From Eledone cirrhosa (Eukaryota), in contig OZ024746.1 in NCBI GenBank assembly GCA_964016885.1, positions 30,008,001 through 30,072,000 of the forward strand: a DNA stretch of 64,000 nt, given 5' to 3'. Below, one piece after another: positions 35,475 to 62,772 of the stretch (positions are counted from its first letter, which is position 1; each line of letters opens with the position of its first letter). The notes under the pieces are model-generated. The model searched no databases, had not been told where the DNA came from, and saw only the letters and a program-made list of their open reading frames with translations. Position numbers and translations under genes: made by a program.

Positions 35475-35487
35475 TATATTATAATAT
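35475..35487. repeat. Left putative target-site duplication TATATTATAATAT
   Basis: Identical 13-mer at 62760-62772; overlaps element end by 4 nt of microhomology. Confidence 0.7.
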
Positions 35488-35690
35488 TTGGGGAGGGTCA
35501 TATTTGCGTAATATTGCCAGAATTAATAACAGAACACACTCACTGTTTGGTTGGTTTTCGCTTCTCGCTGTCTTTTATATATATATATCTGCGATCTAAC
35601 TTACTCGGTCCTCAATGTTGCCATTGACTGACCGGCGGTCAAAAATAATACAGATACAATATAGACAAACACATATATATATAGTTTACA

Positions 35691-35724
35691 TAAATCTTTC
35701 GTTGCACATCTGCAACATCGTCAG
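35691..35724 (-). ncRNA. Same candidate hammerhead on minus arm (also 39824-39857, 43958-43991, 48090-48123)
   Basis: Reverse complement of the motif at 50058-50091. Confidence 0.72.
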
Positions 35725-36001
35725 TGGTGTTATATTCATTGTTCCTCCTGTTGTGTTGTATGTCTACGCCATTTTTTTTTTTTTTTTTTTTGTTCAGTCT
35801 GTCTATATATTTATTTATTTATTTGCTTGTTTGTTTATCTTATTTTATTTTGTCTTCTTTGCGCATGCGTTTGCGTGTGTGTATAGTGTTATGTGTGACT
35901 AGTGTGTATAGTGTTGTGTCTGCTGGGTGACTAGTGTGTGTTTATGTGCTTGTGTATGTATTTATTTATCTCATTTTATTTAATTTAATTTACTTATTTA
36001 T

Positions 36002-39000
36002 TTATACTTCTCTTAGGTCAGTGTTGTTTGTTTGGGTGTTGTTGTTGTTCCACTCATTCTTTCTGTTTAGCTTTGGTCTTCTAATTTCTATTTCACTGGC
36101 CTCTCTGATTTGCCTATCTGCTGGGTCATTCCTATGTTTAGATATTATTCTAATTTCTATGTTGTCTATGTTACCGTCATGATGTTGTCTAGCATGTTCG
36201 TATAGTACTGACCCGTTTTTTCGTCCTTTTAGTTCCCCCCAGTGTTGGTCTATCCTTTCACCTATGCTACGAGCTGTCTCACCTATGTATGTTGTTGTCG
36301 TGTTTCTGCAAGTACCCTCTGTACATCTTATGCTATAGACTACGTTTCTAGTTTTACAGTTTATCCGGGGGTTCACCTTACATATGATACATTTCCTATT
36401 GGTACAGTGGGTTTTCTTAAAAGGGTAGGTTTTGCTGATCAGGGATTTTATGGTGGTTCCTGGCTTTTCTACCACCTTTATTTTTAAGTGGGTCTTTCTC
36501 AGGGCCTTTCTACACTGGTTAGCTAATTTCCCTCCAGGGGTGGCGTCCACAAACATGACACTCTGATATCTCTGGTTGTCGTACCATGATGTGGCCTTCC
36601 CTATCTTATGTCTAGCCCTATCTAAGCTATTCCATGATTTGCTCCTGTATAGTGGGCAAATTCCTTTCATGTCCAGTTCTATGAGGGTCTTATACTTTTC
36701 CATGGCTCCTTCGTATACTCTGACTCTGTCTCTTTGGTTGTAGCCAGAGAACTGCATGCGGTTGATGAAGTGTTGGATGTGTCCTTCCATTTCTGTTGGG
36801 TCGCACATGCTGGACACATTCTTCATCACTCGTACCAAATCTGCGATCAGAATATTAAACTTAGCACTACTGGACATTGCTGAGTTTTTGAGTATCAGGT
36901 ATTTGGAGGCCATGGGTTTAGCATAGTGTGAGTGGAGAATTTGGGCTCTCTCGTCTATAGTGTTAATCCAGAGTTCTGTGTCTAATACAGGTAGTCTATT
37001 GTTAGGGTGTTTGGAAGGGAAGTCTATAGTTACAGTTATACTCTGGTGTATGGAATTAGCTATCTGCTGGATGCTTTCCATCGTGCTACGTTCTAAATCA
37101 AACTTGTTAGTGCTCTCTAGTGGGGGTGTTCTTATAACTATATTGATATCGTCTACATAACGAGAGTACATGATGAGGTCTATGGAGCTTTCATTAAGGA
37201 GATCTTTAAGTCTCCTTTCCCACCATACCATGAAAAGGTTGGCAACATCGCCAGCTATGCTGACGCCGATGGCTGCTCCCTCATTTTGGGTGTAGATTTT
37301 CTCATTGAACTTAAATATGTGGCCCTTTAGGGTAGTTTTGATACTAGCCCCTATTGCATGTGCGACCATTTTTCTTACCTGATCAGTGTTTTGGGGGGTC
37401 CGTATAGCTTTGGTCCACCCAATCCACCTTCCTATGGGAGTCTTTTTAGCCATTGAGGTTATGGTGGGGGGTCTACCTCTTATAGGTCTACTAGGGCAGA
37501 AACATCTAAGGTCATGGCTGTCTAGGTAGTCAGTGTCGTAGGTAAGTCTAAGTAGGAGGCCCAGTTCGTCTGTGTCGACGTCGCAGAACTCCACCTCACT
37601 CTCAATGATCATCTCCACACATCTTTTCACAGCAAAATCAATGTTAATGGATGGGTACAGTGACACCACATCCATGCTGCCTATTATGCAGTTGGATAGG
37701 CTCCTGTTTTTGTTGCACTCACTGATTCTGCTGAGGAGGTCCTCTGTACTTTCACATACATCTGGGGACATCTTGATTATGGGGCGTATAACCATTGAGA
37801 GGAAGTAGGAGATCCTGTAGTTGCTAGCTATATTAGCTCCGCATACAGGTCTTGTTGGTGGTCCTATTGTCGGGTCGTCGACTGTCTTGTGGTCTTTGCG
37901 GAGCCCATACAAGGGTGGTATGCCATTGTTAGACGCCTGGAAGTTGTTGGCAGTGCGTCTGCTTGGCTTTAGGATGTCAGTCCACATCATCATGTGAGCG
38001 TTGAGGATTTTTTCTCTCCCATCGTGTGTTAGTTGTGCAACTTCGCTCGTGTTGGTGATGTGGGGTTGCATTGCCTCGATGTAGTTCGGCATGCTATCTA
38101 TTGACATCCTACCAGACTTATCTGTGGGTAGACACACTACCTCACCATCCCTTGTGCGCTGCTTGAGGCTAACCAAGCCTTCTACAGGTTTTATCCCAAG
38201 TTGTTGGGCCTCTGGTCTGCTCTGTCTCATAGTGTACCTGTCTACTACTTGTCTAATCTTATTTCTAGCTATGGTGAACTGTGCCTCCGTCTCGTCATCT
38301 ATTTGTTGTGGTATGCAAACTCTTTTATTAAAGGGTAACCTCGTAGGATAGATATTACCCATCTTATATGTTTTGTCAGCTGGGTTGAAAAATAGTTTCT
38401 CTAAGGGGTTGTCGTTATTTCTATCGTCATAGTTGTGTGTGTTGCTATTATTGTTATCATGGTGGTTGTTGTTGTTTCTATCCTTAGCATTAATATTATT
38501 ATTGTTATGATTGCTAGATGTATTGTTGTTTACTTCACCGTTATTGTTGTTGTTGTTACTGCTATTTCTACCATTGTGGTTGTTACTATTATTATGTTTC
38601 TTGTTTTTGTTGATGTTGCTACATGTACTATTTCCATTATTACCACTGTGGTTATTGTTGTTGTTGTTGTTCGTATTGTTACCGTTATTACTACTGTGGT
38701 CACTGTTGCTGTGTCTGTGGTTAACGTTTCTATTATTATTATTATTGTGGTTGTTGTTGTTCTGTCTATCGCTAGTATTATTACCATTATCACTATTTCT
38801 CACTTTCCTGCCATTGTTATGGTTATGGCTGTTATTTCTATACCCAGAGTTATTGTTTATATTACTACTACCGTTATTATTGTTGTTGTTGTTTACCTTT
38901 GCATTCCAACGTATTTTTGTGAAACACTTTTCCAGCTCCGTTTTGCATTCCATAGGATTAATCTTTTTGTAGATGGCAAATTTTGGTGGTAACTTTAGGA

Positions 39001-39634
39001 TTTGTTGTTCTTGTTCACTGATTAAAGTGTTCCCATAGATATTTACTGTGTGGTCATTGGTAAATTCTTCCGGTAGTTTTACATCACTCATACGGATGTT
39101 GTCGATGTTATCTGGGTATTTTTGAGAATATTCGATTTTCCTTTCTTGTAGTTTTTTCTTATTCATCCATTCTAATTTCTTCTTGAAATGCCTACAGCAT
39201 TCGTTTTGAGCATATTTCGTTTCGCGTCGGATGACGCTCATGAAGTCATCTCTCTCGTTTGCTGTGATGAGATTTCGGATTTCCTTACCGTTGATGCGTT
39301 TTTGTCTGTAGAGTGCGTTGACTTTTGTGTATGTTGTTCTTTTCATATTAACTGTTATTGTGTGTTTTAGCCGTTCAGCTTGTGTTTTGTTCAATAATAA
39401 ATTATTTACTTGTTTTGATATGTTTGTTGTGTATGTTTTGGAGGAAACACAGTGTTTTAAGAAGCGGATTTGTTCTGTTGTTATTGTAGTTTTTATATAA
39501 CAGAAAACAGTGTCTTTCAATAACCTTTCAGCTTGGCACAAGCTAATGCCATAGCGGCGATGAATTAGTTTTGCGAGGTTTTTTATATGAAATCGTGTGT
39601 CGAAACAGATATTGTTATATTTGGGGAGGGTCAT
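36002..39634 (-). CDS. PLE polyprotein (RT + GIY-YIG endonuclease), copy 1
   Basis: RT motifs PPLYGLRKDHK, SMDVVSLYPSI, QNEGAAIG, RYVDD, LPVLD; Cys linker HCTNRKCIIC (Neptune-like); GIY-YIG VVYSIRC...YIGETARSIGERIDQH...REASEI...LNRKNEW. Confidence 0.96.
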   Translation of the reverse strand: MTLPKYNNICFDTRFHIKNLAKLIHRRYGISLCQAERLLKDTVFCYIKTTITTEQIRFLKHCVSSKTYTTNISKQVNNLLLNKTQAERLKHTITVNMKRTTYTKVNALYRQKRINGKEIRNLITANERDDFMSVIRRETKYAQNECCRHFKKKLEWMNKKKLQERKIEYSQKYPDNIDNIRMSDVKLPEEFTNDHTVNIYGNTLISEQEQQILKLPPKFAIYKKINPMECKTELEKCFTKIRWNAKVNNNNNNNGSSNINNNSGYRNNSHNHNNGRKVRNSDNGNNTSDRQNNNNHNNNNNRNVNHRHSNSDHSSNNGNNTNNNNNNNHSGNNGNSTCSNINKNKKHNNSNNHNGRNSSNNNNNNGEVNNNTSSNHNNNNINAKDRNNNNHHDNNNSNTHNYDDRNNDNPLEKLFFNPADKTYKMGNIYPTRLPFNKRVCIPQQIDDETEAQFTIARNKIRQVVDRYTMRQSRPEAQQLGIKPVEGLVSLKQRTRDGEVVCLPTDKSGRMSIDSMPNYIEAMQPHITNTSEVAQLTHDGREKILNAHMMMWTDILKPSRRTANNFQASNNGIPPLYGLRKDHKTVDDPTIGPPTRPVCGANIASNYRISYFLSMVIRPIIKMSPDVCESTEDLLSRISECNKNRSLSNCIIGSMDVVSLYPSINIDFAVKRCVEMIIESEVEFCDVDTDELGLLLRLTYDTDYLDSHDLRCFCPSRPIRGRPPTITSMAKKTPIGRWIGWTKAIRTPQNTDQVRKMVAHAIGASIKTTLKGHIFKFNEKIYTQNEGAAIGVSIAGDVANLFMVWWERRLKDLLNESSIDLIMYSRYVDDINIVIRTPPLESTNKFDLERSTMESIQQIANSIHQSITVTIDFPSKHPNNRLPVLDTELWINTIDERAQILHSHYAKPMASKYLILKNSAMSSSAKFNILIADLVRVMKNVSSMCDPTEMEGHIQHFINRMQFSGYNQRDRVRVYEGAMEKYKTLIELDMKGICPLYRSKSWNSLDRARHKIGKATSWYDNQRYQSVMFVDATPGGKLANQCRKALRKTHLKIKVVEKPGTTIKSLISKTYPFKKTHCTNRKCIICKVNPRINCKTRNVVYSIRCTEGTCRNTTTTYIGETARSIGERIDQHWGELKGRKNGSVLYEHARQHHDGNIDNIEIRIISKHRNDPADRQIREASEIEIRRPKLNRKNEWNNNNTQTNNTDLREV

Positions 39635-40135
39635 ATTTGCGTAATATTGCCAGAATTAATAACAGAACACACTCACTGTTTGGTTGGTTTTCGCTTCTCG
39701 CTGTCTTTTATATATATATATCTGCGATCTAACTTACTCGGTCCTCAATGTTGCCATTGACTGACCGGCGGTCAAAAATAATACAGATACAATATAGACA
39801 AACACATATATATATAGTTTACATAAATCTTTCGTTGCACATCTGCAACATCGTCAGTGGTGTTATATTCATTGTTCCTCCTGTTGTGTTGTATGTCTAC
39901 GCCATTTTTTTTTTTTTTTTTTTTTGTTCAGTCTGTCTATATATTTATTTATTTATTTGCTTGTTTGTTTATCTTATTTTATTTTGTCTTCTTTGCGCAT
40001 GCGTTTGCGTGTGTGTATAGTGTTATGTGTGACTAGTGTGTATAGTGTTGTGTCTGCTGGGTGACTAGTGTGTGTTTATGTGCTTGTGTATGTATTTATT
40101 TATCTCATTTTATTTAATTTAATTTACTTATTTAT

Positions 40136-43100
40136 TTATACTTCTCTTAGGTCAGTGTTGTTTGTTTGGGTGTTGTTGTTGTTCCACTCATTCTTTCTGT
40201 TTAGCTTTGGTCTTCTAATTTCTATTTCACTGGCCTCTCTGATTTGCCTATCTGCTGGGTCATTCCTATGTTTAGATATTATTCTAATTTCTATGTTGTC
40301 TATGTTACCGTCATGATGTTGTCTAGCATGTTCGTATAGTACTGACCCGTTTTTTCGTCCTTTTAGTTCCCCCCAGTGTTGGTCTATCCTTTCACCTATG
40401 CTACGAGCTGTCTCACCTATGTATGTTGTTGTCGTGTTTCTGCAAGTACCCTCTGTACATCTTATGCTATAGACTACGTTTCTAGTTTTACAGTTTATCC
40501 GGGGGTTCACCTTACATATGATACATTTCCTATTGGTACAGTGGGTTTTCTTAAAAGGGTAGGTTTTGCTGATCAGGGATTTTATGGTGGTTCCTGGCTT
40601 TTCTACCACCTTTATTTTTAAGTGGGTCTTTCTCAGGGCCTTTCTACACTGGTTAGCTAATTTCCCTCCAGGGGTGGCGTCCACAAACATGACACTCTGA
40701 TATCTCTGGTTGTCGTACCATGATGTGGCCTTCCCTATCTTATGTCTAGCCCTATCTAAGCTATTCCATGATTTGCTCCTGTATAGTGGGCAAATTCCTT
40801 TCATGTCCAGTTCTATGAGGGTCTTATACTTTTCCATGGCTCCTTCGTATACTCTGACTCTGTCTCTTTGGTTGTAGCCAGAGAACTGCATGCGGTTGAT
40901 GAAGTGTTGGATGTGTCCTTCCATTTCTGTTGGGTCGCACATGCTGGACACATTCTTCATCACTCGTACCAAATCTGCGATCAGAATATTAAACTTAGCA
41001 CTACTGGACATTGCTGAGTTTTTGAGTATCAGGTATTTGGAGGCCATGGGTTTAGCATAGTGTGAGTGGAGAATTTGGGCTCTCTCGTCTATAGTGTTAA
41101 TCCAGAGTTCTGTGTCTAATACAGGTAGTCTATTGTTAGGGTGTTTGGAAGGGAAGTCTATAGTTACAGTTATACTCTGGTGTATGGAATTAGCTATCTG
41201 CTGGATGCTTTCCATCGTGCTACGTTCTAAATCAAACTTGTTAGTGCTCTCTAGTGGGGGTGTTCTTATAACTATATTGATATCGTCTACATAACGAGAG
41301 TACATGATGAGGTCTATGGAGCTTTCATTAAGGAGATCTTTAAGTCTCCTTTCCCACCATACCATGAAAAGGTTGGCAACATCGCCAGCTATGCTGACGC
41401 CGATGGCTGCTCCCTCATTTTGGGTGTAGATTTTCTCATTGAACTTAAATATGTGGCCCTTTAGGGTAGTTTTGATACTAGCCCCTATTGCATGTGCGAC
41501 CATTTTTCTTACCTGATCAGTGTTTTGGGGGGTCCGTATAGCTTTGGTCCACCCAATCCACCTTCCTATGGGAGTCTTTTTAGCCATTGAGGTTATGGTG
41601 GGGGGTCTACCTCTTATAGGTCTACTAGGGCAGAAACATCTAAGGTCATGGCTGTCTAGGTAGTCAGTGTCGTAGGTAAGTCTAAGTAGGAGGCCCAGTT
41701 CGTCTGTGTCGACGTCGCAGAACTCCACCTCACTCTCAATGATCATCTCCACACATCTTTTCACAGCAAAATCAATGTTAATGGATGGGTACAGTGACAC
41801 CACATCCATGCTGCCTATTATGCAGTTGGATAGGCTCCTGTTTTTGTTGCACTCACTGATTCTGCTGAGGAGGTCCTCTGTACTTTCACATACATCTGGG
41901 GACATCTTGATTATGGGGCGTATAACCATTGAGAGGAAGTAGGAGATCCTGTAGTTGCTAGCTATATTAGCTCCGCATACAGGTCTTGTTGGTGGTCCTA
42001 TTGTCGGGTCGTCGACTGTCTTGTGGTCTTTGCGGAGCCCATACAAGGGTGGTATGCCATTGTTAGACGCCTGGAAGTTGTTGGCAGTGCGTCTGCTTGG
42101 CTTTAGGATGTCAGTCCACATCATCATGTGAGCGTTGAGGATTTTTTCTCTCCCATCGTGTGTTAGTTGTGCAACTTCGCTCGTGTTGGTGATGTGGGGT
42201 TGCATTGCCTCGATGTAGTTCGGCATGCTATCTATTGACATCCTACCAGACTTATCTGTGGGTAGACACACTACCTCACCATCCCTTGTGCGCTGCTTGA
42301 GGCTAACCAAGCCTTCTACAGGTTTTATCCCAAGTTGTTGGGCCTCTGGTCTGCTCTGTCTCATAGTGTACCTGTCTACTACTTGTCTAATCTTATTTCT
42401 AGCTATGGTGAACTGTGCCTCCGTCTCGTCATCTATTTGTTGTGGTATGCAAACTCTTTTATTAAAGGGTAACCTCGTAGGATAGATATTACCCATCTTA
42501 TATGTTTTGTCAGCTGGGTTGAAAAATAGTTTCTCTAAGGGGTTGTCGTTATTTCTATCGTCATAGTTGTGTGTGTTGCTATTATTGTTATCATGGTGGT
42601 TGTTGTTGTTTCTATCCTTAGCATTAATATTATTATTGTTATGATTGCTAGATGTATTGTTGTTTACTTCACCGTTATTGTTGTTGTTGTTACTGTTATT
42701 TCTACCATTGTGGTTGTTACTATTATTATGTTTCTTGTTTTTGTTGATGTTGCTACATGTACTATTTCCATTATTACCACTGTGGTTATTGTTGTTGTTG
42801 TTGTTCGTATTGTTACCGTTATTACTACTGTGGTCACTGTTGCTGTGTCTGTGGTTAACGTTTCTATTATTATTATTATTGTGGTTGTTGTTGTTCTGTC
42901 TATCGCTAGTATTATTACCATTATCACTATTTCTCACTTTCCTGCCATTGTTATGGTTATGGCTGTTATTTCTATACCCAGAGTTATTGTTTATATTACT
43001 ACTACCGTTATTATTGTTGTTGTTGTTTACCTTTGCATTCCAACGTATTTTTGTGAAACACTTTTCCAGCTCCGTTTTGCATTCCATAGGATTAATCTTT

Positions 43101-43768
43101 TTGTAGATGGCAAATTTTGGTGGTAACTTTAGGATTTGTTGTTCTTGTTCACTGATTAAAGTGTTCCCATAGATATTTACTGTGTGGTCATTGGTAAATT
43201 CTTCCGGTAGTTTTACATCACTCATACGGATGTTGTCGATGTTATCTGGGTATTTTTGAGAATATTCGATTTTCCTTTCTTGTAGTTTTTTCTTATTCAT
43301 CCATTCTAATTTCTTCTTGAAATGCCTACAGCATTCGTTTTGAGCATATTTCGTTTCGCGTCGGATGACGCTCATGAAGTCATCTCTCTCGTTTGCTGTG
43401 ATGAGATTTCGGATTTCCTTACCGTTGATGCGTTTTTGTCTGTAGAGTGCGTTGACTTTTGTGTATGTTGTTCTTTTCATATTAACTGTTATTGTGTGTT
43501 TTAGCCGTTCAGCTTGTGTTTTGTTCAATAATAAATTATTTACTTGTTTTGATATGTTTGTTGTGTATGTTTTGGAGGAAACACAGTGTTTTAAGAAGCG
43601 GATTTGTTCTGTTGTTATTGTAGTTTTTATATAACAGAAAACAGTGTCTTTCAATAACCTTTCAGCTTGGCACAAGCTAATGCCATAGCGGCGATGAATT
43701 AGTTTTGCGAGGTTTTTTATATGAAATCGTGTGTCGAAACAGATATTGTTATATTTGGGGAGGGTCAT
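40136..43768 (-). CDS. PLE polyprotein, copy 2 (private S>N at 42696)
   Basis: Same 1210-aa ORF; GRNNS instead of GRNSS. Confidence 0.96.
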   Translation of the reverse strand: MTLPKYNNICFDTRFHIKNLAKLIHRRYGISLCQAERLLKDTVFCYIKTTITTEQIRFLKHCVSSKTYTTNISKQVNNLLLNKTQAERLKHTITVNMKRTTYTKVNALYRQKRINGKEIRNLITANERDDFMSVIRRETKYAQNECCRHFKKKLEWMNKKKLQERKIEYSQKYPDNIDNIRMSDVKLPEEFTNDHTVNIYGNTLISEQEQQILKLPPKFAIYKKINPMECKTELEKCFTKIRWNAKVNNNNNNNGSSNINNNSGYRNNSHNHNNGRKVRNSDNGNNTSDRQNNNNHNNNNNRNVNHRHSNSDHSSNNGNNTNNNNNNNHSGNNGNSTCSNINKNKKHNNSNNHNGRNNSNNNNNNGEVNNNTSSNHNNNNINAKDRNNNNHHDNNNSNTHNYDDRNNDNPLEKLFFNPADKTYKMGNIYPTRLPFNKRVCIPQQIDDETEAQFTIARNKIRQVVDRYTMRQSRPEAQQLGIKPVEGLVSLKQRTRDGEVVCLPTDKSGRMSIDSMPNYIEAMQPHITNTSEVAQLTHDGREKILNAHMMMWTDILKPSRRTANNFQASNNGIPPLYGLRKDHKTVDDPTIGPPTRPVCGANIASNYRISYFLSMVIRPIIKMSPDVCESTEDLLSRISECNKNRSLSNCIIGSMDVVSLYPSINIDFAVKRCVEMIIESEVEFCDVDTDELGLLLRLTYDTDYLDSHDLRCFCPSRPIRGRPPTITSMAKKTPIGRWIGWTKAIRTPQNTDQVRKMVAHAIGASIKTTLKGHIFKFNEKIYTQNEGAAIGVSIAGDVANLFMVWWERRLKDLLNESSIDLIMYSRYVDDINIVIRTPPLESTNKFDLERSTMESIQQIANSIHQSITVTIDFPSKHPNNRLPVLDTELWINTIDERAQILHSHYAKPMASKYLILKNSAMSSSAKFNILIADLVRVMKNVSSMCDPTEMEGHIQHFINRMQFSGYNQRDRVRVYEGAMEKYKTLIELDMKGICPLYRSKSWNSLDRARHKIGKATSWYDNQRYQSVMFVDATPGGKLANQCRKALRKTHLKIKVVEKPGTTIKSLISKTYPFKKTHCTNRKCIICKVNPRINCKTRNVVYSIRCTEGTCRNTTTTYIGETARSIGERIDQHWGELKGRKNGSVLYEHARQHHDGNIDNIEIRIISKHRNDPADRQIREASEIEIRRPKLNRKNEWNNNNTQTNNTDLREV

Positions 43769-44267
43769 ATTTGCGTAATATTGCCAGAATTAATAACAGA
43801 ACACACTCACTGTTTGGTTGGTTTTCGCTTCTCGCTGTCTTTTATATATATATATCTGCGATCTAACTTACTCGGTCCTCAATGTTGCCATTGACTGACC
43901 GGCGGTCAAAAATAATACAGATACAATATAGACAAACACATATATATATAGTTTACATAAATCTTTCGTTGCACATCTGCAACATCGTCAGTGGTGTTAT
44001 ATTCATTGTTCCTCCTGTTGTGTTGTATGTCTACGCCATTTTTTTTTTTTTTTTTTTGTTCAGTCTGTCTATATATTTATTTATTTATTTGCTTGTTTGT
44101 TTATCTTATTTTATTTTGTCTTCTTTGCGCATGCGTTTGCGTGTGTGTATAGTGTTATGTGTGACTAGTGTGTATAGTGTTGTGTCTGCTGGGTGACTAG
44201 TGTGTGTTTATGTGCTTGTGTATGTATTTATTTATCTCATTTTATTTAATTTAATTTACTTATTTAT

Positions 44268-47200: not shown

Positions 47201-47900
47201 GCTCCGTTTTGCATTCCATAGGATTAATCTTTTTGTAGATGGCAAATTTTGGTGGTAACTTTAGGATTTGTTGTTCTTGTTCACTGATTAAAGTGTTCCC
47301 ATAGATATTTACTGTGTGGTCATTGGTAAATTCTTCCGGTAGTTTTACATCACTCATACGGATGTTGTCGATGTTATCTGGGTATTTTTGAGAATATTCG
47401 ATTTTCCTTTCTTGTAGTTTTTTCTTATTCATCCATTCTAATTTCTTCTTGAAATGCCTACAGCATTCGTTTTGAGCATATTTCGTTTCGCGTCGGATGA
47501 CGCTCATGAAGTCATCTCTCTCGTTTGCTGTGATGAGATTTCGGATTTCCTTACCGTTGATGCGTTTTTGTCTGTAGAGTGCGTTGACTTTTGTGTATGT
47601 TGTTCTTTTCATATTAACTGTTATTGTGTGTTTTAGCCGTTCAGCTTGTGTTTTGTTCAATAATAAATTATTTACTTGTTTTGATATGTTTGTTGTGTAT
47701 GTTTTGGAGGAAACACAGTGTTTTAAGAAGCGGATTTGTTCTGTTGTTATTGTAGTTTTTATATAACAGAAAACAGTGTCTTTCAATAACCTTTCAGCTT
47801 GGCACAAGCTAATGCCATAGCGGCGATGAATTAGTTTTGCGAGGTTTTTTATATGAAATCGTGTGTCGAAACAGATATTGTTATATTTGGGGAGGGTCAT
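44268..47900 (-). CDS. PLE polyprotein, copy 3 (private G>D at 46411)
   Basis: Same 1210-aa ORF; RDDEV instead of RDGEV. Confidence 0.96.
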   Translation of the reverse strand: MTLPKYNNICFDTRFHIKNLAKLIHRRYGISLCQAERLLKDTVFCYIKTTITTEQIRFLKHCVSSKTYTTNISKQVNNLLLNKTQAERLKHTITVNMKRTTYTKVNALYRQKRINGKEIRNLITANERDDFMSVIRRETKYAQNECCRHFKKKLEWMNKKKLQERKIEYSQKYPDNIDNIRMSDVKLPEEFTNDHTVNIYGNTLISEQEQQILKLPPKFAIYKKINPMECKTELEKCFTKIRWNAKVNNNNNNNGSSNINNNSGYRNNSHNHNNGRKVRNSDNGNNTSDRQNNNNHNNNNNRNVNHRHSNSDHSSNNGNNTNNNNNNNHSGNNGNSTCSNINKNKKHNNSNNHNGRNSSNNNNNNGEVNNNTSSNHNNNNINAKDRNNNNHHDNNNSNTHNYDDRNNDNPLEKLFFNPADKTYKMGNIYPTRLPFNKRVCIPQQIDDETEAQFTIARNKIRQVVDRYTMRQSRPEAQQLGIKPVEGLVSLKQRTRDDEVVCLPTDKSGRMSIDSMPNYIEAMQPHITNTSEVAQLTHDGREKILNAHMMMWTDILKPSRRTANNFQASNNGIPPLYGLRKDHKTVDDPTIGPPTRPVCGANIASNYRISYFLSMVIRPIIKMSPDVCESTEDLLSRISECNKNRSLSNCIIGSMDVVSLYPSINIDFAVKRCVEMIIESEVEFCDVDTDELGLLLRLTYDTDYLDSHDLRCFCPSRPIRGRPPTITSMAKKTPIGRWIGWTKAIRTPQNTDQVRKMVAHAIGASIKTTLKGHIFKFNEKIYTQNEGAAIGVSIAGDVANLFMVWWERRLKDLLNESSIDLIMYSRYVDDINIVIRTPPLESTNKFDLERSTMESIQQIANSIHQSITVTIDFPSKHPNNRLPVLDTELWINTIDERAQILHSHYAKPMASKYLILKNSAMSSSAKFNILIADLVRVMKNVSSMCDPTEMEGHIQHFINRMQFSGYNQRDRVRVYEGAMEKYKTLIELDMKGICPLYRSKSWNSLDRARHKIGKATSWYDNQRYQSVMFVDATPGGKLANQCRKALRKTHLKIKVVEKPGTTIKSLISKTYPFKKTHCTNRKCIICKVNPRINCKTRNVVYSIRCTEGTCRNTTTTYIGETARSIGERIDQHWGELKGRKNGSVLYEHARQHHDGNIDNIEIRIISKHRNDPADRQIREASEIEIRRPKLNRKNEWNNNNTQTNNTDLREV

Positions 47901-49358: not shown

Positions 49359-49363
49359 GTACC

Positions 49364-53200: not shown

Positions 53201-53912
53201 ACGAAGGAGCCATGGAAAAGTATAAGACCCTCATAGAACTGGACATGAAAGGAATTTGCCCACTATACAGGAGCAAATCATGGAATAGCTTAGATAGGGC
53301 TAGACATAAGATAGGGAAGGCCACATCATGGTACGACAACCAGAGATATCAGAGTGTCATGTTTGTGGACGCCACCCCTGGAGGGAAATTAGCTAACCAG
53401 TGTAGAAAGGCCCTGAGAAAGACCCACTTAAAAATAAAGGTGGTAGAAAGCCAGGAACCACCATAAAATCCCTGATCAGCAAAACCTACCCTTTTAAGAA
53501 AACCCACTGTACCAATAGGAAATGTATCATATGTAAGGTGAACCCCCGGATAAACTGTAAAACTAGAAACGTAGTCTATAGCATAAGATGTACAGAGGGT
53601 ACTTGCAGAAACACGACAACAACATACATAGGTGAGACAGCTCGTAGCATAGGTGAAAGGATAGACCAACACTGGGGGGAACTAAAAGGACGAAAAAACG
53701 GGTCAGTACTATACGAACATGCTAGACAACATCATGACGGTAACATAGACAACATAGAAATTAGAATAATATCTAAACATAGGAATGACCCAGCAGATAG
53801 GCAAATCAGAGAGGCCAGTGAAATAGAAATTAGAAGACCAAAGCTAAACAGAAAGAATGAGTGGAACAACAACAACACCCAAACAAACAACACTGACCTA
53901 AGAGAAGTATAA
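50281..53912 (+). pseudogene. PLE polyprotein copy 4, 1-nt deletion frameshift before GIY-YIG
   Basis: GTAGAAAG at ~53444-53450 versus GTAGAAAAG in other copies truncates the ORF at 1061 aa; also V>M at 52249. Could be a sequencing error. Confidence 0.85.
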
Positions 53913-54412
53913 ATAAATAAGTAAATTAAATTAAATAAAATGAGATAAATAAATACATACACAAGCACATAAACACACACTAGTCACCCAGCAGACACAA
54001 CACTATACACACTAGTCACACATAACACTATACACACACGCAAACGCATGCGCAAAGAAGACAAAATAAAATAAGATAAACAAACAAGCAAATAAATAAA
54101 TAAATATATAGACAGACTGAACAAAAAAAAAAAAAAAAAAAATGGCGTAGACATACAACACAACAGGAGGAACAATGAATATAACACCACTGACGATGTT
54201 GCAGATGTGCAACGAAAGATTTATGTAAACTATATATATATGTGTTTGTCTATATTGTATCTGTATTATTTTTGACCGCCGGTCAGTCAATGGCAACATT
54301 GAGGACCGAGTAAGTTAGATCGCAGATATATATATATAAAAGACAGCGAGAAGCGAAAACCAACCAAACAGTGAGTGTGTTCTGTTATTAATTCTGGCAA
54401 TATTACGCAAAT

Positions 54413-57400
54413 ATGACCCTCCCCAAATATAACAATATCTGTTTCGACACACGATTTCATATAAAAAACCTCGCAAAACTAATTCATCGCCGCTATGGCA
54501 TTAGCTTGTGCCAAGCTGAAAGGTTATTGAAAGACACTGTTTTCTGTTATATAAAAACTACAATAACAACAGAACAAATCCGCTTCTTAAAACACTGTGT
54601 TTCCTCCAAAACATACACAACAAACATATCAAAACAAGTAAATAATTTATTATTGAACAAAACACAAGCTGAACGGCTAAAACACACAATAACAGTTAAT
54701 ATGAAAAGAACAACATACACAAAAGTCAACGCACTCTACAGACAAAAACGCATCAACGGTAAGGAAATCCGAAATCTCATCACAGCAAACGAGAGAGATG
54801 ACTTCATGAGCGTCATCCGACGCGAAACGAAATATGCTCAAAACGAATGCTGTAGGCATTTCAAGAAGAAATTAGAATGGATGAATAAGAAAAAACTACA
54901 AGAAAGGAAAATCGAATATTCTCAAAAATACCCAGATAACATCGACAACATCCGTATGAGTGATGTAAAACTACCGGAAGAATTTACCAATGACCACACA
55001 GTAAATATCTATGGGAACACTTTAATCAGTGAACAAGAACAACAAATCCTAAAGTTACCACCAAAATTTGCCATCTACAAAAAGATTAATCCTATGGAAT
55101 GCAAAACGGAGCTGGAAAAGTGTTTCACAAAAATACGTTGGAATGCAAAGGTAAACAACAACAACAATAATAACGGTAGTAGTAATATAAACAATAACTC
55201 TGGGTATAGAAATAACAGCCATAACCATAACAATGGCAGGAAAGTGAGAAATAGTGATAATGGTAATAATACTAGCGATAGACAGAACAACAACAACCAC
55301 AATAATAATAATAATAGAAACGTTAACCACAGACACAGCAACAGTGACCACAGTAGTAATAACGGTAACAATACGAACAACAACAACAACAATAACCACA
55401 GTGGTAATAATGGAAATAGTACATGTAGCAACATCAACAAAAACAAGAAACATAATAATAGTAACAACCACAATGGTAGAAATAGCAGTAACAACAACAA
55501 CAATAACGGTGAAGTAAACAACAATACATCTAGCAATCATAACAATAATAATATTAATGCTAAGGATAGAAACAACAACAACCACCATGATAACAATAAT
55601 AGCAACACACACAACTATGACGATAGAAATAACGACAACCCCTTAGAGAAACTATTTTTCAACCCAGCTGACAAAACATATAAGATGGGTAATATCTATC
55701 CTACGAGGTTACCCTTTAATAAAAGAGTTTGCATACCACAACAAATAGATGACGAGACGGAGGCACAGTTCACCATAGCTAGAAATAAGATTAGACAAGT
55801 AGTAGACAGGTACACTATGAGACAGAGCAGACCAGAGGCCCAACAACTTGGGATAAAACCTGTAGAAGGCTTGGTTAGCCTCAAGCAGCGCACAAGGGAT
55901 GGTGAGGTAGTGTGTCTACCCACAGATAAGTCTGGTAGGATGTCAATAGATAGCATGCCGAACTACATCGAGGCAATGCAACCCCACATCACCAACACGA
56001 GCGAAGTTGCACAACTAACACACGATGGGAGAGAAAAAATCCTCAACGCTCACATGATGATGTGGACTGACATCCTAAAGCCAAGCAGACGCACTGCCAA
56101 CAACTTCCAGGCGTCTAACAATGGCATACCACCCTTGTATGGGCTCCGCAAAGACCACAAGACAGTCGACGACCCGACAATAGGACCACCAACAAGACCT
56201 GTATGCGGAGCTAATATAGCTAGCAACTACAGGATCTCCTACTTCCTCTCAATGGTTATACGCCCCATAATCAAGATGTCCCCAGATGTATGTGAAAGTA
56301 CAGAGGACCTCCTCAGCAGAATCAGTGAGTGCAACAAAAACAGGAGCCTATCCAACTGCATAATAGGCAGCATGGATGTGGTGTCACTGTACCCATCCAT
56401 TAACATTGATTTTGCTGTGAAAAGATGTGTGGAGATGATCATTGAGAGTGAGGTGGAGTTCTGCGACGTCGACACAGACGAACTGGGCCTCCTACTTAGA
56501 CTTACCTACGACACTGACTACCTAGACAGCCATGACCTTAGATGTTTCTGCCCTAGTAGACCTATAAGAGGTAGACCCCCCACCATAACCTCAATGGCTA
56601 AAAAGACTCCCATAGGAAGGTGGATTGGGTGGACCAAAGCTATACGGACCCCCCAAAACACTGATCAGGTAAGAAAAATGGTCGCACATGCAATAGGGGC
56701 TAGTATCAAAACTACCCTAAAGGGCCACATATTTAAGTTCAATGAGAAAATCTACACCCAAAATGAGGGAGCAGCCATCGGCGTCAGCATAGCTGGCGAT
56801 GTTGCCAACCTTTTCATGGTATGGTGGGAAAGGAGACTTAAAGATCTCCTTAATGAAAGCTCCATAGACCTCATCATGTACTCTCGTTATGTAGACGATA
56901 TCAATATAGTTATAAGAACACCCCCACTAGAGAGCACTAACAAGTTTGATTTAGAACGTAGCACGATGGAAAGCATCCAGCAGATAGCTAATTCCATACA
57001 CCAGAGTATAACTGTAACTATAGACTTCCCTTCCAAACACCCTAACAATAGACTACCTGTATTAGACACAGAACTCTGGATTAACACTATAGACGAGAGA
57101 GCCCAAATTCTCCACTCACACTATGCTAAACTCATGGCCTCCAAATACCTGATACTCAAAAACTCAGCAATGTCCAGTAGTGCTAAGTTTAATATTCTGA
57201 TCGCAGATTTGGTACGAGTGATGAAGAATGTGTCCAGCATGTGCGACCCAACAGAAATGGAAGGACACATCCAACACTTCATCAACCGCATGCAGTTCTC
57301 TGGCTACAACCAAAGAGACAGAGTCAGAGTATACGAAGGAGCCATGGAAAAGTATAAGACCCTCATAGAACTGGACATGAAAGGAATGTGCCCACTATAC

Positions 57401-58045
57401 AGGAGCAAATCATGGAATAGCTTAGATAGGGCTAGACATAAGATAGGGAAGGCCACATCATGGTACGACAACCAGAGATATCAGAGTGTCATGTTTGTGG
57501 ACGCCACCCCTGGAGGGAAATTAGCTAACCAGTGTAGAAAGGCCCTGAGAAAGACCCACTTAAAAATAAAGGTGGTAGAAAAGCCAGGAACCACCATAAA
57601 ATCCCTGATCAGCAAAACCTACCCTTTTAAGAAAACCCACTGTACCAATAGGAAATGTATCATATGTAAGGTGAACCCCCGGATAAACTGTAAAACTAGA
57701 AACGTAGTCTATAGCATAAGATGTACAGAGGGTACTTGCAGAAACACGACAACAACATACATAGGTGAGACAGCTCGTAGCATAGGTGAAAGGATAGACC
57801 AACACTGGGGGGAACTAAAAGGACGAAAAAACGGGTCAGTACTATACGAACATGCTAGACAACATCATGACGGTAACATAGACAACATAGAAATTAGAAT
57901 AATATCTAAACATAGGAATGACCCAGCAGATAGGCAAATCAGAGAGGCCAGTGAAATAGAAATTAGAAGACCAAAGCTAAACAGAAAGAATGAGTGGAAC
58001 AACAACAACACCCAAACAAACAACACTGACCTAAGAGAAGTATAA
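54413..58045 (+). CDS. PLE polyprotein, copy 5 (private P>L 57132, I>M 57388)
   Basis: Intact 1210-aa ORF with RT and GIY-YIG motifs. Confidence 0.96.
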   Translation: MTLPKYNNICFDTRFHIKNLAKLIHRRYGISLCQAERLLKDTVFCYIKTTITTEQIRFLKHCVSSKTYTTNISKQVNNLLLNKTQAERLKHTITVNMKRTTYTKVNALYRQKRINGKEIRNLITANERDDFMSVIRRETKYAQNECCRHFKKKLEWMNKKKLQERKIEYSQKYPDNIDNIRMSDVKLPEEFTNDHTVNIYGNTLISEQEQQILKLPPKFAIYKKINPMECKTELEKCFTKIRWNAKVNNNNNNNGSSNINNNSGYRNNSHNHNNGRKVRNSDNGNNTSDRQNNNNHNNNNNRNVNHRHSNSDHSSNNGNNTNNNNNNNHSGNNGNSTCSNINKNKKHNNSNNHNGRNSSNNNNNNGEVNNNTSSNHNNNNINAKDRNNNNHHDNNNSNTHNYDDRNNDNPLEKLFFNPADKTYKMGNIYPTRLPFNKRVCIPQQIDDETEAQFTIARNKIRQVVDRYTMRQSRPEAQQLGIKPVEGLVSLKQRTRDGEVVCLPTDKSGRMSIDSMPNYIEAMQPHITNTSEVAQLTHDGREKILNAHMMMWTDILKPSRRTANNFQASNNGIPPLYGLRKDHKTVDDPTIGPPTRPVCGANIASNYRISYFLSMVIRPIIKMSPDVCESTEDLLSRISECNKNRSLSNCIIGSMDVVSLYPSINIDFAVKRCVEMIIESEVEFCDVDTDELGLLLRLTYDTDYLDSHDLRCFCPSRPIRGRPPTITSMAKKTPIGRWIGWTKAIRTPQNTDQVRKMVAHAIGASIKTTLKGHIFKFNEKIYTQNEGAAIGVSIAGDVANLFMVWWERRLKDLLNESSIDLIMYSRYVDDINIVIRTPPLESTNKFDLERSTMESIQQIANSIHQSITVTIDFPSKHPNNRLPVLDTELWINTIDERAQILHSHYAKLMASKYLILKNSAMSSSAKFNILIADLVRVMKNVSSMCDPTEMEGHIQHFINRMQFSGYNQRDRVRVYEGAMEKYKTLIELDMKGMCPLYRSKSWNSLDRARHKIGKATSWYDNQRYQSVMFVDATPGGKLANQCRKALRKTHLKIKVVEKPGTTIKSLISKTYPFKKTHCTNRKCIICKVNPRINCKTRNVVYSIRCTEGTCRNTTTTYIGETARSIGERIDQHWGELKGRKNGSVLYEHARQHHDGNIDNIEIRIISKHRNDPADRQIREASEIEIRRPKLNRKNEWNNNNTQTNNTDLREV

Positions 58046-58545
58046 ATAAATAAGTAAATTAAATTAAATAAAATGAGATAAATAAATACATACACAAGCA
58101 CATAAACACACACTAGTCACCCAGCAGACACAACACTATACACACTAGTCACACATAACACTATACACACACGCAAACGCATGCGCAAAGAAGACAAAAT
58201 AAAATAAGATAAACAAACAAGCAAATAAATAAATAAATATATAGACAGACTGAACAAAAAAAAAAAAAAAAAAAATGGCGTAGACATACAACACAACAGG
58301 AGGAACAATGAATATAACACCACTGACGATGTTGCAGATGTGCAACGAAAGATTTATGTAAACTATATATATATGTGTTTGTCTATATTGTATCTGTATT
58401 ATTTTTGACCGCCGGTCAGTCAATGGCAACATTGAGGACCGAGTAAGTTAGATCGCAGATATATATATATAAAAGACAGCGAGAAGCGAAAACCAACCAA
58501 ACAGTGAGTGTGTTCTGTTATTAATTCTGGCAATATTACGCAAAT

Positions 58546-61500
58546 ATGACCCTCCCCAAATATAACAATATCTGTTTCGACACACGATTTCATATAAAAA
58601 ACCTCGCAAAACTAATTCATCGCCGCTATGGCATTAGCTTGTGCCAAGCTGAAAGGTTATTGAAAGACACTGTTTTCTGTTATATAAAAACTACAATAAC
58701 AACAGAACAAATCCGCTTCTTAAAACACTGTGTTTCCTCCAAAACATACACAACAAACATATCAAAACAAGTAAATAATTTATTATTGAACAAAACACAA
58801 GCTGAACGGCTAAAACACACAATAACAGTTAATATGAAAAGAACAACATACACAAAAGTCAACGCACTCTACAGACAAAAACGCATCAACGGTAAGGAAA
58901 TCCGAAATCTCATCACAGCAAACGAGAGAGATGACTTCATGAGCGTCATCCGACGCGAAACGAAATATGCTCAAAACGAATGCTGTAGGCATTTCAAGAA
59001 GAAATTAGAATGGATGAATAAGAAAAAACTACAAGAAAGGAAAATCGAATATTCTCAAAAATACCCAGATAACATCGACAACATCCGTATGAGTGATGTA
59101 AAACTACCGGAAGAATTTACCAATGACCACACAGTAAATATCTATGGGAACACTTTAATCAGTGAACAAGAACAACAAATCCTAAAGTTACCACCAAAAT
59201 TTGCCATCTACAAAAAGATTAATCCTATGGAATGCAAAACGGAGCTGGAAAAGTGTTTCACAAAAATACGTTGGAATGCAAAGGTAAACAACAACAACAA
59301 TAATAACGGTAGTAGTAATATAAACAATAACTCTGGGTATAGAAATAACAGCCATAACCATAACAATGGCAGGAAAGTGAGAAATAGTGATAATGGTAAT
59401 AATACTAGCGATAGACAGAACAACAACAACCACAATAATAATAATAATAGAAACGTTAACCACAGACACAGCAACAGTGACCACAGTAGTAATAACGGTA
59501 ACAATACGAACAACAACAACAACAATAACCACAGTGGTAATAATGGAAATAGTACATGTAGCAACATCAACAAAAACAAGAAACATAATAATAGTAACAA
59601 CCACAATGGTAGAAATAGCAGTAACAACAACAACAATAACGGTGAAGTAAACAACAATACATCTAGCAATCATAACAATAATAATATTAATGCTAAGGAT
59701 AGAAACAACAACAACCACCATGATAACAATAATAGCAACACACACAACTATGACGATAGAAATAACGACAACCCCTTAGAGAAACTATTTTTCAACCCAG
59801 CTGACAAAACATATAAGATGGGTAATATCTATCCTACGAGGTTACCCTTTAATAAAAGAGTTTGCATACCACAACAAATAGATGACGAGACGGAGGCACA
59901 GTTCACCATAGCTAGAAATAAGATTAGACAAGTAGTAGACAGGTACACTATGAGACAGAGCAGACCAGAGGCCCAACAACTTGGGATAAAACCTGTAGAA
60001 GGCTTGGTTAGCCTCAAGCAGCGCACAAGGGATGGTGAGGTAGTGTGTCTACCCACAGATAAGTCTGGTAGGATGTCAATAGATAGCATGCCGAACTACA
60101 TCGAGGCAATGCAACCCCACATCACCAACACGAGCGAAGTTGCACAACTAACACACGATGGGAGAGAAAAAATCCTCAACGCTCACATGATGATGTGGAC
60201 TGACATCCTAAAGCCAAGCAGACGCACTGCCAACAACTTCCAGGCGTCTAACAATGGCATACCACCCTTGTATGGGCTCCGCAAAGACCACAAGACAGTC
60301 GACGACCCGACAATAGGACCACCAACAAGACCTGTATGCGGAGCTAATATAGCTAGCAACTACAGGATCTCCTACTTCCTCTCAATGGTTATACGCCCCA
60401 TAATCAAGATGTCCCCAGATGTATGTGAAAGTACAGAGGACCTCCTCAGCAGAATCAGTGAGTGCAACAAAAACAGGAGCCTATCCAACTGCATAATAGG
60501 CAGCATGGATGTGGTGTCACTGTACCCATCCATTAACATTGATTTTGCTGTGAAAAGATGTGTGGAGATGATCATTGAGAGTGAGGTGGAGTTCTGCGAC
60601 GTCGACACAGACGAACTGGGCCTCCTACTTAGACTTACCTACGACACTGACTACCTAGACAGCCATGACCTTAGATGTTTCTGCCCTAGTAGACCTATAA
60701 GAGGTAGACCCCCCACCATAACCTCAATGGCTAAAAAGACTCCCATAGGAAGGTGGATTGGGTGGACCAAAGCTATACGGACCCCCCAAAACACTGATCA
60801 GGTAAGAAAAATGGTCGCACATGCAATAGGGGCTAGTATCAAAACTACCCTAAAGGGCCACATATTTAAGTTCAATGAGAAAATCTACACCCAAAATGAG
60901 GGAGCAGCCATCGGCGTCAGCATAGCTGGCGATGTTGCCAACCTTTTCATGGTATGGTGGGAAAGGAGACTTAAAGATCTCCTTAATGAAAGCTCCATAG
61001 ACCTCATCATGTACTCTCGTTATGTAGACGATATCAATATAGTTATAAGAACACCCCCACTAGAGAGCACTAACAAGTTTGATTTAGAACGTAGCACGAT
61101 GGAAAGCATCCAGCAGATAGCTAATTCCATACACCAGAGTATAACTGTAACTATAGACTTCCCTTCCAAACACCCTAACAATAGACTACCTGTATTAGAC
61201 ACAGAACTCTGGATTAACACTATAGACGAGAGAGCCCAAATTCTCCACTCACACTATGCTAAACCCATGGCCTCCAAATACCTGATACTCAAAAACTCAG
61301 CAATGTCCAGTAGTGCTAAGTTTAATATTCTGATCGCAGATTTGGTACGAGTGATGAAGAATGTGTCCAGCATGTGCGACCCAACAGAAATGGAAGGACA
61401 CATCCAACACTTCATCAACCGCATGCAGTTCTCTGGCTACAACCAAAGAGACAGAGTCAGAGTATACGAAGGAGCCATGGAAAAGTATAAGACCCTCATA

Positions 61501-62178
61501 GAACTGGACATGAAAGGAATTTGCCCACTATACAGGAGCAAATCATGGAATAGCTTAGATAGGGCTAGACATAAGATAGGGAAGGCCACATCATGGTACG
61601 ACAACCAGAGATATCAGAGTGTCATGTTTGTGGACGCCACCCCTGGAGGGAAATTAGCTAACCAGTGTAGAAAGGCCCTGAGAAAGACCCACTTAAAAAT
61701 AAAGGTGGTAGAAAAGCCAGGAACCACCATAAAATCCCTGATCAGCAAAACCTACCCTTTTAAGAAAACCCACTGTACCAATAGGAAATGTATCATATGT
61801 AAGGTGAACCCCCGGATAAACTGTAAAACTAGAAACGTAGTCTATAGCATAAGATGTACAGAGGGTACTTGCAGAAACACGACAACAACATACATAGGTG
61901 AGACAGCTCGTAGCATAGGTGAAAGGATAGACCAACACTGGGGGGAACTAAAAGGACGAAAAAACGGGTCAGTACTATACGAACATGCTAGACAACATCA
62001 TGACGGTAACATAGACAACATAGAAATTAGAATAATATCTAAACATAGGAATGACCCAGCAGATAGGCAAATCAGAGAGGCCAGTGAAATAGAAATTAGA
62101 AGACCAAAGCTAAACAGAAAGAATGAGTGGAACAACAACAACACCCAAACAAACAACACTGACCTAAGAGAAGTATAA
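58546..62178 (+). CDS. PLE polyprotein, copy 6
   Basis: Intact 1210-aa ORF; no amino-acid difference from copy 1 seen by eye. Confidence 0.96.
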   Translation: MTLPKYNNICFDTRFHIKNLAKLIHRRYGISLCQAERLLKDTVFCYIKTTITTEQIRFLKHCVSSKTYTTNISKQVNNLLLNKTQAERLKHTITVNMKRTTYTKVNALYRQKRINGKEIRNLITANERDDFMSVIRRETKYAQNECCRHFKKKLEWMNKKKLQERKIEYSQKYPDNIDNIRMSDVKLPEEFTNDHTVNIYGNTLISEQEQQILKLPPKFAIYKKINPMECKTELEKCFTKIRWNAKVNNNNNNNGSSNINNNSGYRNNSHNHNNGRKVRNSDNGNNTSDRQNNNNHNNNNNRNVNHRHSNSDHSSNNGNNTNNNNNNNHSGNNGNSTCSNINKNKKHNNSNNHNGRNSSNNNNNNGEVNNNTSSNHNNNNINAKDRNNNNHHDNNNSNTHNYDDRNNDNPLEKLFFNPADKTYKMGNIYPTRLPFNKRVCIPQQIDDETEAQFTIARNKIRQVVDRYTMRQSRPEAQQLGIKPVEGLVSLKQRTRDGEVVCLPTDKSGRMSIDSMPNYIEAMQPHITNTSEVAQLTHDGREKILNAHMMMWTDILKPSRRTANNFQASNNGIPPLYGLRKDHKTVDDPTIGPPTRPVCGANIASNYRISYFLSMVIRPIIKMSPDVCESTEDLLSRISECNKNRSLSNCIIGSMDVVSLYPSINIDFAVKRCVEMIIESEVEFCDVDTDELGLLLRLTYDTDYLDSHDLRCFCPSRPIRGRPPTITSMAKKTPIGRWIGWTKAIRTPQNTDQVRKMVAHAIGASIKTTLKGHIFKFNEKIYTQNEGAAIGVSIAGDVANLFMVWWERRLKDLLNESSIDLIMYSRYVDDINIVIRTPPLESTNKFDLERSTMESIQQIANSIHQSITVTIDFPSKHPNNRLPVLDTELWINTIDERAQILHSHYAKPMASKYLILKNSAMSSSAKFNILIADLVRVMKNVSSMCDPTEMEGHIQHFINRMQFSGYNQRDRVRVYEGAMEKYKTLIELDMKGICPLYRSKSWNSLDRARHKIGKATSWYDNQRYQSVMFVDATPGGKLANQCRKALRKTHLKIKVVEKPGTTIKSLISKTYPFKKTHCTNRKCIICKVNPRINCKTRNVVYSIRCTEGTCRNTTTTYIGETARSIGERIDQHWGELKGRKNGSVLYEHARQHHDGNIDNIEIRIISKHRNDPADRQIREASEIEIRRPKLNRKNEWNNNNTQTNNTDLREV

Positions 62179-62678
62179 ATAAATAAGTAAATTAAATTAA
62201 ATAAAATGAGATAAATAAATACATACACAAGCACATAAACACACACTAGTCACCCAGCAGACACAACACTATACACACTAGTCACACATAACACTATACA
62301 CACACGCAAACGCATGCGCAAAGAAGACAAAATAAAATAAGATAAACAAACAAGCAAATAAATAAATAAATATATAGACAGACTGAACAAAAAAAAAAAA
62401 AAAAAAAATGGCGTAGACATACAACACAACAGGAGGAACAATGAATATAACACCACTGACGATGTTGCAGATGTGCAACGAAAGATTTATGTAAACTATA
62501 TATATATGTGTTTGTCTATATTGTATCTGTATTATTTTTGACCGCCGGTCAGTCAATGGCAACATTGAGGACCGAGTAAGTTAGATCGCAGATATATATA
62601 TATAAAAGACAGCGAGAAGCGAAAACCAACCAAACAGTGAGTGTGTTCTGTTATTAATTCTGGCAATATTACGCAAAT

Positions 62679-62762
62679 ATGACCCTCCCCAAATATAACA
62701 ATATCTGTTTCGACACACGATTTCATATAAAAAACCTCGCAAAACTAATTCATCGCCGCTAT
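62679..62762 (+). pseudogene. Terminal 84-nt start of the PLE ORF (pLTR 3' tail)
   Basis: MTLPKYNNIC...IHRRY then abrupt change to AT-rich flank. Confidence 0.9.
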
Positions 62763-62772
62763 ATTATAATAT
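62760..62772. repeat. Right putative target-site duplication TATATTATAATAT
   Basis: Identical 13-mer at 35475-35487; overlaps element end by 3 nt. Confidence 0.7.

Follow-up and report, generated by a model that had tools for sequence, protein, structure and literature searches.

Whether a palindrome of about 27 kb, in which copies of one retroelement follow each other head to tail in both directions, can be the product of a single insertion, and on what template arms of more than three units could have been written, are the questions raised by a locus in the genome of Eledone cirrhosa (GenBank assembly GCA_964016885.1, contig OZ024746.1, positions 30,008,001 to 30,072,000 of the forward strand; this stretch of 64,000 nucleotides (nt) is called the window, and positions given without a contig refer to it). 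The element concerned is a putative endonuclease-bearing Penelope-like element (PLE), of which, in a self-comparison of the window, 3.3 units of 4.13 kb were found to point leftward and 3.3 rightward, with an arm-to-arm identity of 99.9% across 13.3 kb. That the array is real and arose in one event is regarded as highly probable. An inverted layout with a tail and a target site duplication (TSD), two start sites and the idea of a circular RNA have all been published previously, and the locus is a known architecture at an unusual scale.

The two arms delimited in a first-pass annotation of this DNA were recovered by the self-comparison. Their outer ends lie within the start of a next open reading frame (ORF) and belong to two kinds, designated 'A' for ends of the +19 to +26 type and 'B' for ends of the +81/+84 type, which carry the tail. 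The left arm (35484..49083, minus strand; 13,600 bp, 3.29 units) runs from a short 'A' end (+18/+26) to an inner end at unit position 2951. The right-facing part (49082-62762, plus strand) opens with the centre (49082..49365, plus), which consists of a 2-nt overlap with the left arm, a 277-bp piece (unit 3219-3495) and a 7-nt templated insert (49359-49365) copying the sequence 11 nt further on; the element then restarts at unit 3219, so that piece and insert form a 284-bp tandem duplication, and the right arm proper (49366..62762, plus; 13,397 bp, 3.24 units) continues to a long 'B' end. A private G>A (unit 3413, a CpG) is common to the 277-bp piece and the copy after it and is absent from the left arm. 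Host DNA between the units was not found in a unit-by-unit comparison, as had been claimed, whereas the accompanying claim that no extra duplication exists fails at the centre. Nor are the units exact repeats of 4133 bp: full units measure 4132, 4134, 4133, 4132, 4133 and 4133 bp and differ by seven private substitutions, one 1-nt deletion and changes of +/-1 in an A-tract. All eight unit differences are singletons, and none of the eight is mirrored between the arms, which disfavours a fold-back artefact of assembly. At its outer ends (ORF +18 on the left, ORF +84 on the right, where the first 84 nt of the next ORF, 62679..62762, plus, include the tail of ~58 nt between the two end sites) the array meets a 13-nt TSD, TATATTATAATAT, whose left copy (35475..35487, plus) overlaps the element by 4 nt and whose right copy (62760..62772, plus) overlaps it by 3 nt. 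The earlier observation of one 13-mer joined to both ends by microhomology of 3-4 nt thus stands, with the qualification that the 13-mer occurs also at 31679 and 31831.

The pairing of one end of each kind was followed through the genome (3.0 Gb searched) by exact-motif counts of element ends. Exact copies of the motif that ends at +84 number 1,572, of which 1,262 are terminal by a second pattern; there are 2,276 terminal ends of the +26 type, and 252 ORF starts run past +84 and are hence internal. The first 44 of the 1,572 matches fell in 37 loci, 27 of which are palindromes with both ends resolved, and 25 of these 27 have an 'A' partner (p=8e-4 against the end frequencies; the far end of L088 was taken from the listing of +26 ends). 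The two remaining palindromes are one B/B locus (L055) and one ambiguous case; the other loci comprise one nested end, six one-armed copies and three cut off by the fetched span. Against anchoring bias, 20 ends of the +26 type without an exact +84 match nearby were chosen as a second sample, in which all eight resolved loci were A+B and none A/A, while three were single-armed, one was unresolved and eight were too diverged to read; partner arms down to 16-21 nt exist in this sample. Multi-unit loci picked from the listings were A+B in 11 of 11 cases, with 'B' ends from +69 to +84 (one overlaps the first sample), and so were five loci of the first search, among them a 62-kb locus with 1.8 and 13 units. 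The targets of the family are (TA)n tracts, and the centres show overlaps of 0-12 nt or templated patches. A head-to-head layout with one 'A' and one 'B' end is thus the habit of the family. Literature searches turned up neither a description of multi-unit palindromic PLE insertions nor a counted A+B rule, with subscription papers and supplements, which may hold such cases, outside the scope. At L061 (G000:C1:36133500-36150000) one insertion is present twice, 9.5 kb apart, with an identical centre and a right end at +71 in one case and +26 in the other.

Fourteen multi-unit loci, including the window and the 62-kb locus on C28, were compared for sequence variants. Among them, 23 single-nucleotide polymorphisms (SNPs) are each private to one locus and present there in every unit, of either arm, that covers the position; alongside these stand 39 singletons and six real subset-shared variants (one further subset row is a boundary artefact). 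Since 'A' and 'B' ends are paired, variants are common to both arms and a TSD is present, the array is best read as one insertion in which both target ends were primed, as had been proposed. The further proposal that the locus lies far beyond the usual PLE insertion holds only for its size; the layout itself is textbook, and multi-unit arms recur (14 loci, one of 62 kb).

The preferred reading is that of an active endonuclease-bearing PLE in a single retrotransposition event. Its GIY-YIG domain would nick each strand of a TA-rich target, at sites separated by the 13 nt that the TSD gives, and both freed 3' ends would prime reverse transcription on the element RNA near ORF +26 and +84 by 3-4 nt of AT pairing, a step suggested by the genome-wide pairing of ends and in agreement with in-vitro work on another PLE. 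Synthesis would pass backwards through the pseudo-long terminal repeat (pLTR) and then through whole units, with a random stop since the template would be endless. This template would most likely be a 4,133-nt monomer, released by a hammerhead ribozyme and ligated to a circle. The two strands would finally join head to head by a microhomology of 0-12 nt or a templated patch, as found at the junctions, which may also prime the second strand.

How far arms extend beyond one unit bears on the template. When the first 100 of the 252 internal ORF starts were sorted by eye, arms with one, two and three ORF starts stood at 83:7:1. Survival per further unit was 0.065, 0.09 and 0.125, thus about 0.1 and roughly constant, and it matches the range of 0.06-0.14 expected from how far arms reach within the first unit (18 arms over 1 kb). 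Inner ends are scattered from 764 to 4028 without a pile-up (23 arms at loci with more than one unit). Because unit survival is constant and inner ends are scattered, the template behaves as if endless, and the earlier claim of a template longer than one unit gains support from both, short of proof. That the arms were made at insertion rather than later is considered quite probable.

A candidate device for such a template lies in the pLTR, where a minimal type I hammerhead motif (62453..62491, plus; predicted cut UUA/UG after 62489) was detected. Further copies at 50055, 54187 and 58320 (plus) and at 35689, 39822, 43956 and 48088 (minus) bring the window to eight, one per unit. The motif has the core CUGAYGA/GAAA, an unpaired base after A9, G10.1-C11.1, a long helix II, a helix III of 2 bp with a self-complementary loop and a helix I of 2 bp; it fits the features of PLE hammerheads listed in the available text of PMC4209133, the 2-bp helix I being as in Drosophila virilis. 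Across 13 copies the pairing holds in 94.6% of cells, with eight cells changed on both sides, and 0 of 500 shuffles reach this value, a control inflated by the relatedness of the sequences. Genome-wide, 2,892 matches to a variant of the core were counted. Run-off of complementary DNA (cDNA) at the hammerhead cut was looked for as well, but the 49 ends that fall in the last 620 nt form no dominant peak. Seamless units hide any circle junction. The circular template that the first-pass annotation had put forward gains from a motif it had missed, although the idea has been in print since 2014 (PMC4209133).

A poly(A) scar of circle ligation was considered for the A-tract (unit 3844-3862) and rejected, as older copies encode a run of 4-5 A before ATGGCG and the borders are invariant; most loci keep a steady tract length, and different loci have tracts of 6 to 26. 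At three places the inner ends of short arms form clusters: at unit 4097-4104 (for example L080, L087, L089, L139, L153), just downstream of a TATA/initiator-like site, at the A-tract at unit 3851-3863 (for example L083, L144) and at hammerhead helix II at 3911-3916 (for example L063). These clusters may mark a transcript start and stalls of the reverse transcriptase (RT), a signal that is weak after multiple testing. Further CTGATGA...GAAA cores with short stems in the window, at 15419 (plus), 3415 (minus), 18743 and 19259 (both minus), are possible hammerheads of other repeats.

A number of observations weigh against the reading of one twin-primed event on a circle. The two- and three-pass counts behind the survival values are small (8/91 and 1/8), only one arm is present at 6 of the 37 'B'-anchored and 3 of the 12 young 'A'-anchored loci, and the palindrome L055 is B/B. 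Five of 12 young multi-unit loci (window and C28 locus excluded) hold variants shared by a subset of units, unlike the prediction for one circle; at G000:C1:181298441-181312487 (L118, L119) a 131-nt deletion in the 3' untranslated region, as measured by pairwise alignment, affects each of the three right units and spares the left one, and both arms there have five private SNPs in common. At the 62-kb locus (G000:C28:42003927-42066230, L031-L038; 1.8 plus about 13 units, a 55-kb arm, a centre with a 51-nt patch repeated three times) neighbouring units share blocks of variants, including a 4-nt frameshift in three neighbours, and these blocks point to later turnover at the DNA level. Under the fitted decay, two independent arms of at least three units are expected only ~0.001 times per genome. 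Covariation in the hammerhead is confined to two helix II pairs in related sequences, Rfam gave no hammerhead match, and for another PLE hammerhead cleavage was dispensable for insertion in vitro, an unprocessed multimeric RNA being proposed instead (PMC11167929). On balance, a circle or a monomer read repeatedly is placed ahead of both a multimeric transcript and later DNA expansion as the source of the long arms, at slightly less than an even chance. The full proposal, an autonomous 4.1-kb element that replicates via a hammerhead-made circle, with a paired enzyme priming one cut at two fixed sites of the circle, rolling on for >13 kb per side and the strands priming each other's second strand, is tentative and stands well short of an even chance.

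The same twin-primed event could instead have copied a transcript that read through a tandem source array of at least four units and stayed uncleaved; we judge this unlikely but the strongest of the alternatives. A multimer has been proposed for the anole PLE, where insertion was unaffected by ribozyme mutants (PMC11167929), possible source arrays of 3 to 13 units exist, and the subset-shared variants of the five loci form contiguous blocks if units are ordered from the left arm into the right. Against it, a parent multimer was not found, none of the 14 arrays carrying the unit-specific variants of another; long arms lack a run-off pile-up at a fixed 5' end; unit survival does not drop at two or three units, though long sources are rare; and a multimer alone cannot account for new variants that are fixed in every unit of an array.

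Less probable still is that a short palindrome of about 1.x units per arm came first and grew by unequal crossover, its arms being evened by conversion. The block-shared variants of the C28 locus are typical of such turnover, three loci have variants only in the two outer right units, and the shared variant at the window's centre lies at a CpG, so the centre duplication may postdate insertion. However, with 0 of 8 window variants shared, growth would require at least four duplications before any mutation, and survival from unit to unit equals the decay within a unit. On the element's sense strand, singleton changes lean to A: G>A outnumbers C>T by 16 to 10, and C>A outnumbers G>T by 6 to 0. 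This bias, tested post hoc with p about 0.05, hints weakly that the units were reverse-transcribed separately.

Near-equal arms, which had been put forward as remarkable in this insertion, proved not to be a property of the family. Arm lengths at 26 sampled loci (L055 left out as B/B) are uncorrelated (Spearman -0.13), and the idea that arms are generally equal was rejected, near-equal arms occurring at 4 of 26 loci where 2.4 would be expected (p=0.22). Of the 14 multi-unit loci only the window has arms within 2%; ratios at the others run from 1.2 to 45. Given the expectation of ~0.001, the window locus needs a fold-back, an unusually processive event or later expansion. The second long arm is slightly favoured to be an independent long cDNA, with a fold-back copy of the first arm close behind; in the latter version one rare long cDNA would turn over a 268-nt loop onto a short stub primed at the other end, which would remove the difficulty of rarity. 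At C3:170.96M and C2:74.89M, units at mirror positions share one variant, as fits fold-back or conversion from arm to arm, whereas the deletion at C1:181.30M contradicts fold-back. In the window, the left arm lacks the centre variant, which speaks for an independent second cDNA, though the site is a CpG.

That the assembly enlarged or mirrored the array through fold-back reads or a wrongly resolved repeat is very improbable: no spanning read was seen and near-identical arrays are prone to errors in unit number, but the arms are not mirror images, since their ends and flanks differ, their private SNPs are not mirrored and the centre is asymmetric, and the same layout recurs at dozens of loci. 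Two independent insertions back to back at the same TA site are the least credible alternative, for although the site had been struck before by another PLE and C2:54.49M has two 'A'-ended copies, only 91% alike, back to back, both arms here are of the same haplotype, the centre has a 2-nt overlap and neither TA nor a TSD, and A+B pairing is strict.

The earlier strike is represented by an older, decayed PLE of another family (31831..35474), which forms the left flank and is itself head to head with a tail of ~130 nt; it has RT remnants on the plus strand, an inverted arm at 31842-32549 and the 13-mer at both of its ends, the far one lying at 31831-31843, and its paralogues also make head-to-head pairs. 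Because this far end carries the same 13-mer, the 13-mer predates the window insertion and was duplicated again; at this one site, the same 13 nt seem to have undergone duplication by two different PLEs. The left and right flanks are different high-copy repeats that are not joined in other copies, and in the paralogues of both, plain (TA)n stands in place of the interrupted 13-mer of the window. The 13-mer has six matches in 982 kb of fetched loci, all of which, by their coordinates, are probably the window's own junctions fetched again. Neither an empty allele nor a junction-bridging piece was found at the left junction in four public contig sets, where many copies swamp the signal.

Intact ORFs of 1210 amino acids lie at 36002..39634, 40136..43768 and 44268..47900 (minus) and at 54413..58045 and 58546..62178 (plus); the innermost right copy (50281..53466, plus) is frameshifted by a 1-nt deletion to 1061 amino acids. 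The single ORF encodes an Asn-rich insert, RT, a CX4CX2C linker and, at the C terminus, GIY-YIG with CCHH (motifs DKSG, DVVSLYPS, YSRYVDD and VVY..YIG). Pfam RVT_1 matches the protein at E=6e-5, below the curated cut-off; Pfam GIY-YIG gave no match on the window protein, only the distant homologues P0053 and P0101 matching weakly, so that the domain is assigned putatively from its motifs. C-TEGT-C lies between VVY and YIG and HARQHH downstream, in accordance with the CCHH motif, which has two cysteines between the GIY and YIG boxes (PMC8557442, available text). The linker CTNRKCIIC at residue 1077 fits the CX2-5CxxC of the Neptune and Nematis clades, and the endonuclease motifs are C-terminal rather than N-terminal as in Naiad and Chlamys. 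The element is accordingly classed by its linker motif as a putative endonuclease-bearing PLE of Neptune/Nematis type. Among 101 homologues, most others being unnamed, the closest named one is an Octopus vulgaris protein with 69% identity, and none is a named reference PLE. The in-frame insert (window 59281-59775, ORF residues 246-410, upstream of the RT) is 50% N; rotifer PLEs carry Asn-rich inserts at other positions (PMC3846280, in the text available). Sequence runs labelled as other species (B, C) contain 57-63% of query words, and contigs under other species labels match the ORF with 0-4 differences across 300-800 nt, near-identical copies being present there. The motif AAAATGGCG is presumably YY1-like. 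Elsewhere in the window, a short one-armed copy of the same family (14202-14354, 91%) lies in a TA tract and ends ~20 nt into the ORF. Five other palindromes (710-1841, 6040-6429, 15609-15895, 13020-13712 and 19381-19686; arm identity 79-97%) may have arisen as head-to-head insertions from additional PLE-type families; at least two of them adjoin (TA)n on one flank.

The layout is that of canonical PLEs, with a pLTR from (partial-)tandem copies, an inverted 5'-truncated copy, a tail at one end and a TSD. PMC3846280 and PMC8557442, in their available portions, describe such an inverted arrangement with tail and TSD as typical, the former suggesting self-priming. Adineta vaga Pen2a and the Naiad/Neptune elements described there are likewise head to head, with a one-end tail, a TSD and ends in the ORF start, and share a TATA run in the pLTR, (TA)n targets and an Asn-rich ORF insert; they differ in a short inverted pLTR and a tail of 30-40 nt, as against multi-unit arms (13 kb here, 55 kb at C28) and a tail of ~58 nt, and the A+B pairing is here counted at dozens of loci. 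For the green anole Poseidon element (PAc), PMC11167929 describes two start sites and how both strands are extended, together with a dimer that is predicted and a multimeric RNA. PAc resembles the present element in two internal start sites that define the tail, in cutting and extension of both strands, in AT-rich targets, tandem loci and a hammerhead in the repeat. PAc belongs to a different clade, the window element having the CX2-5CxxC linker; its hammerhead lies over the ATG and not ~190 nt upstream of it as here, and PMC11167929 favours multimeric RNA without mention of circles or an inverted arm. As regards circles, hammerhead-made circles were proposed as a template for more-than-unit copying (PMC4209133), circles were demonstrated for small retrozymes (PMC7229834), and retrozymes were linked to PLEs (bioRxiv 10.64898/2026.07.22.740005), all as far as the available text of these sources goes. 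PLE minimal hammerheads and retrozymes share with the window element a type I hammerhead per unit, head-to-tail multimers and a proposed circular template; there, circles are demonstrated only for non-coding retrozymes of 170-400 nt, whereas the unit here is 4.1 kb, autonomous and with an intact ORF, and its circle is a conjecture. The element may thus work like a retrozyme replicon yet is not a member of that group. The available text of PMC13282606 and PMC11722881 added nothing on structure.

A parallel exists outside the PLEs. LINE-1 twin priming also starts from both 3' ends of the target and gives a head-to-head join with microhomology and a TSD. Its second priming takes place on the same linear RNA at an internal position that varies, and the arms do not overlap. 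Unlike LINE-1, the window family uses two fixed sites, 58 nt apart, and its arms copy the same sequence.

PLE copying, the tandem and inverted copies and the one-end tail are described as unresolved in the available text of PMC8557442 and PMC11167929, and the present family is a favourable place to address them: it is young and abundant (about 2,300 exact ends of the +26 type and 1,260 of the +84 type), with intact ORFs. With one 'A' and one 'B' end in each insertion, a rule that can be counted, the two start sites known from the literature are linked to the two strands of the target. The enzyme would write >13 kb per run if each long arm is a single cDNA. A defined candidate circle of 4,133 nt with a predicted cut site makes the choice between circle and multimer accessible to ordinary RNA work, and many-copy arms with a predicted self-cutting motif in each unit make the locus a good natural test of the old, unproven idea of copying from circular RNA. 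Should the circle reading be true, a protein-coding eukaryotic element would be carrying out target-primed reverse transcription in rolling-circle fashion, and the locus would be a near-fresh product of it.

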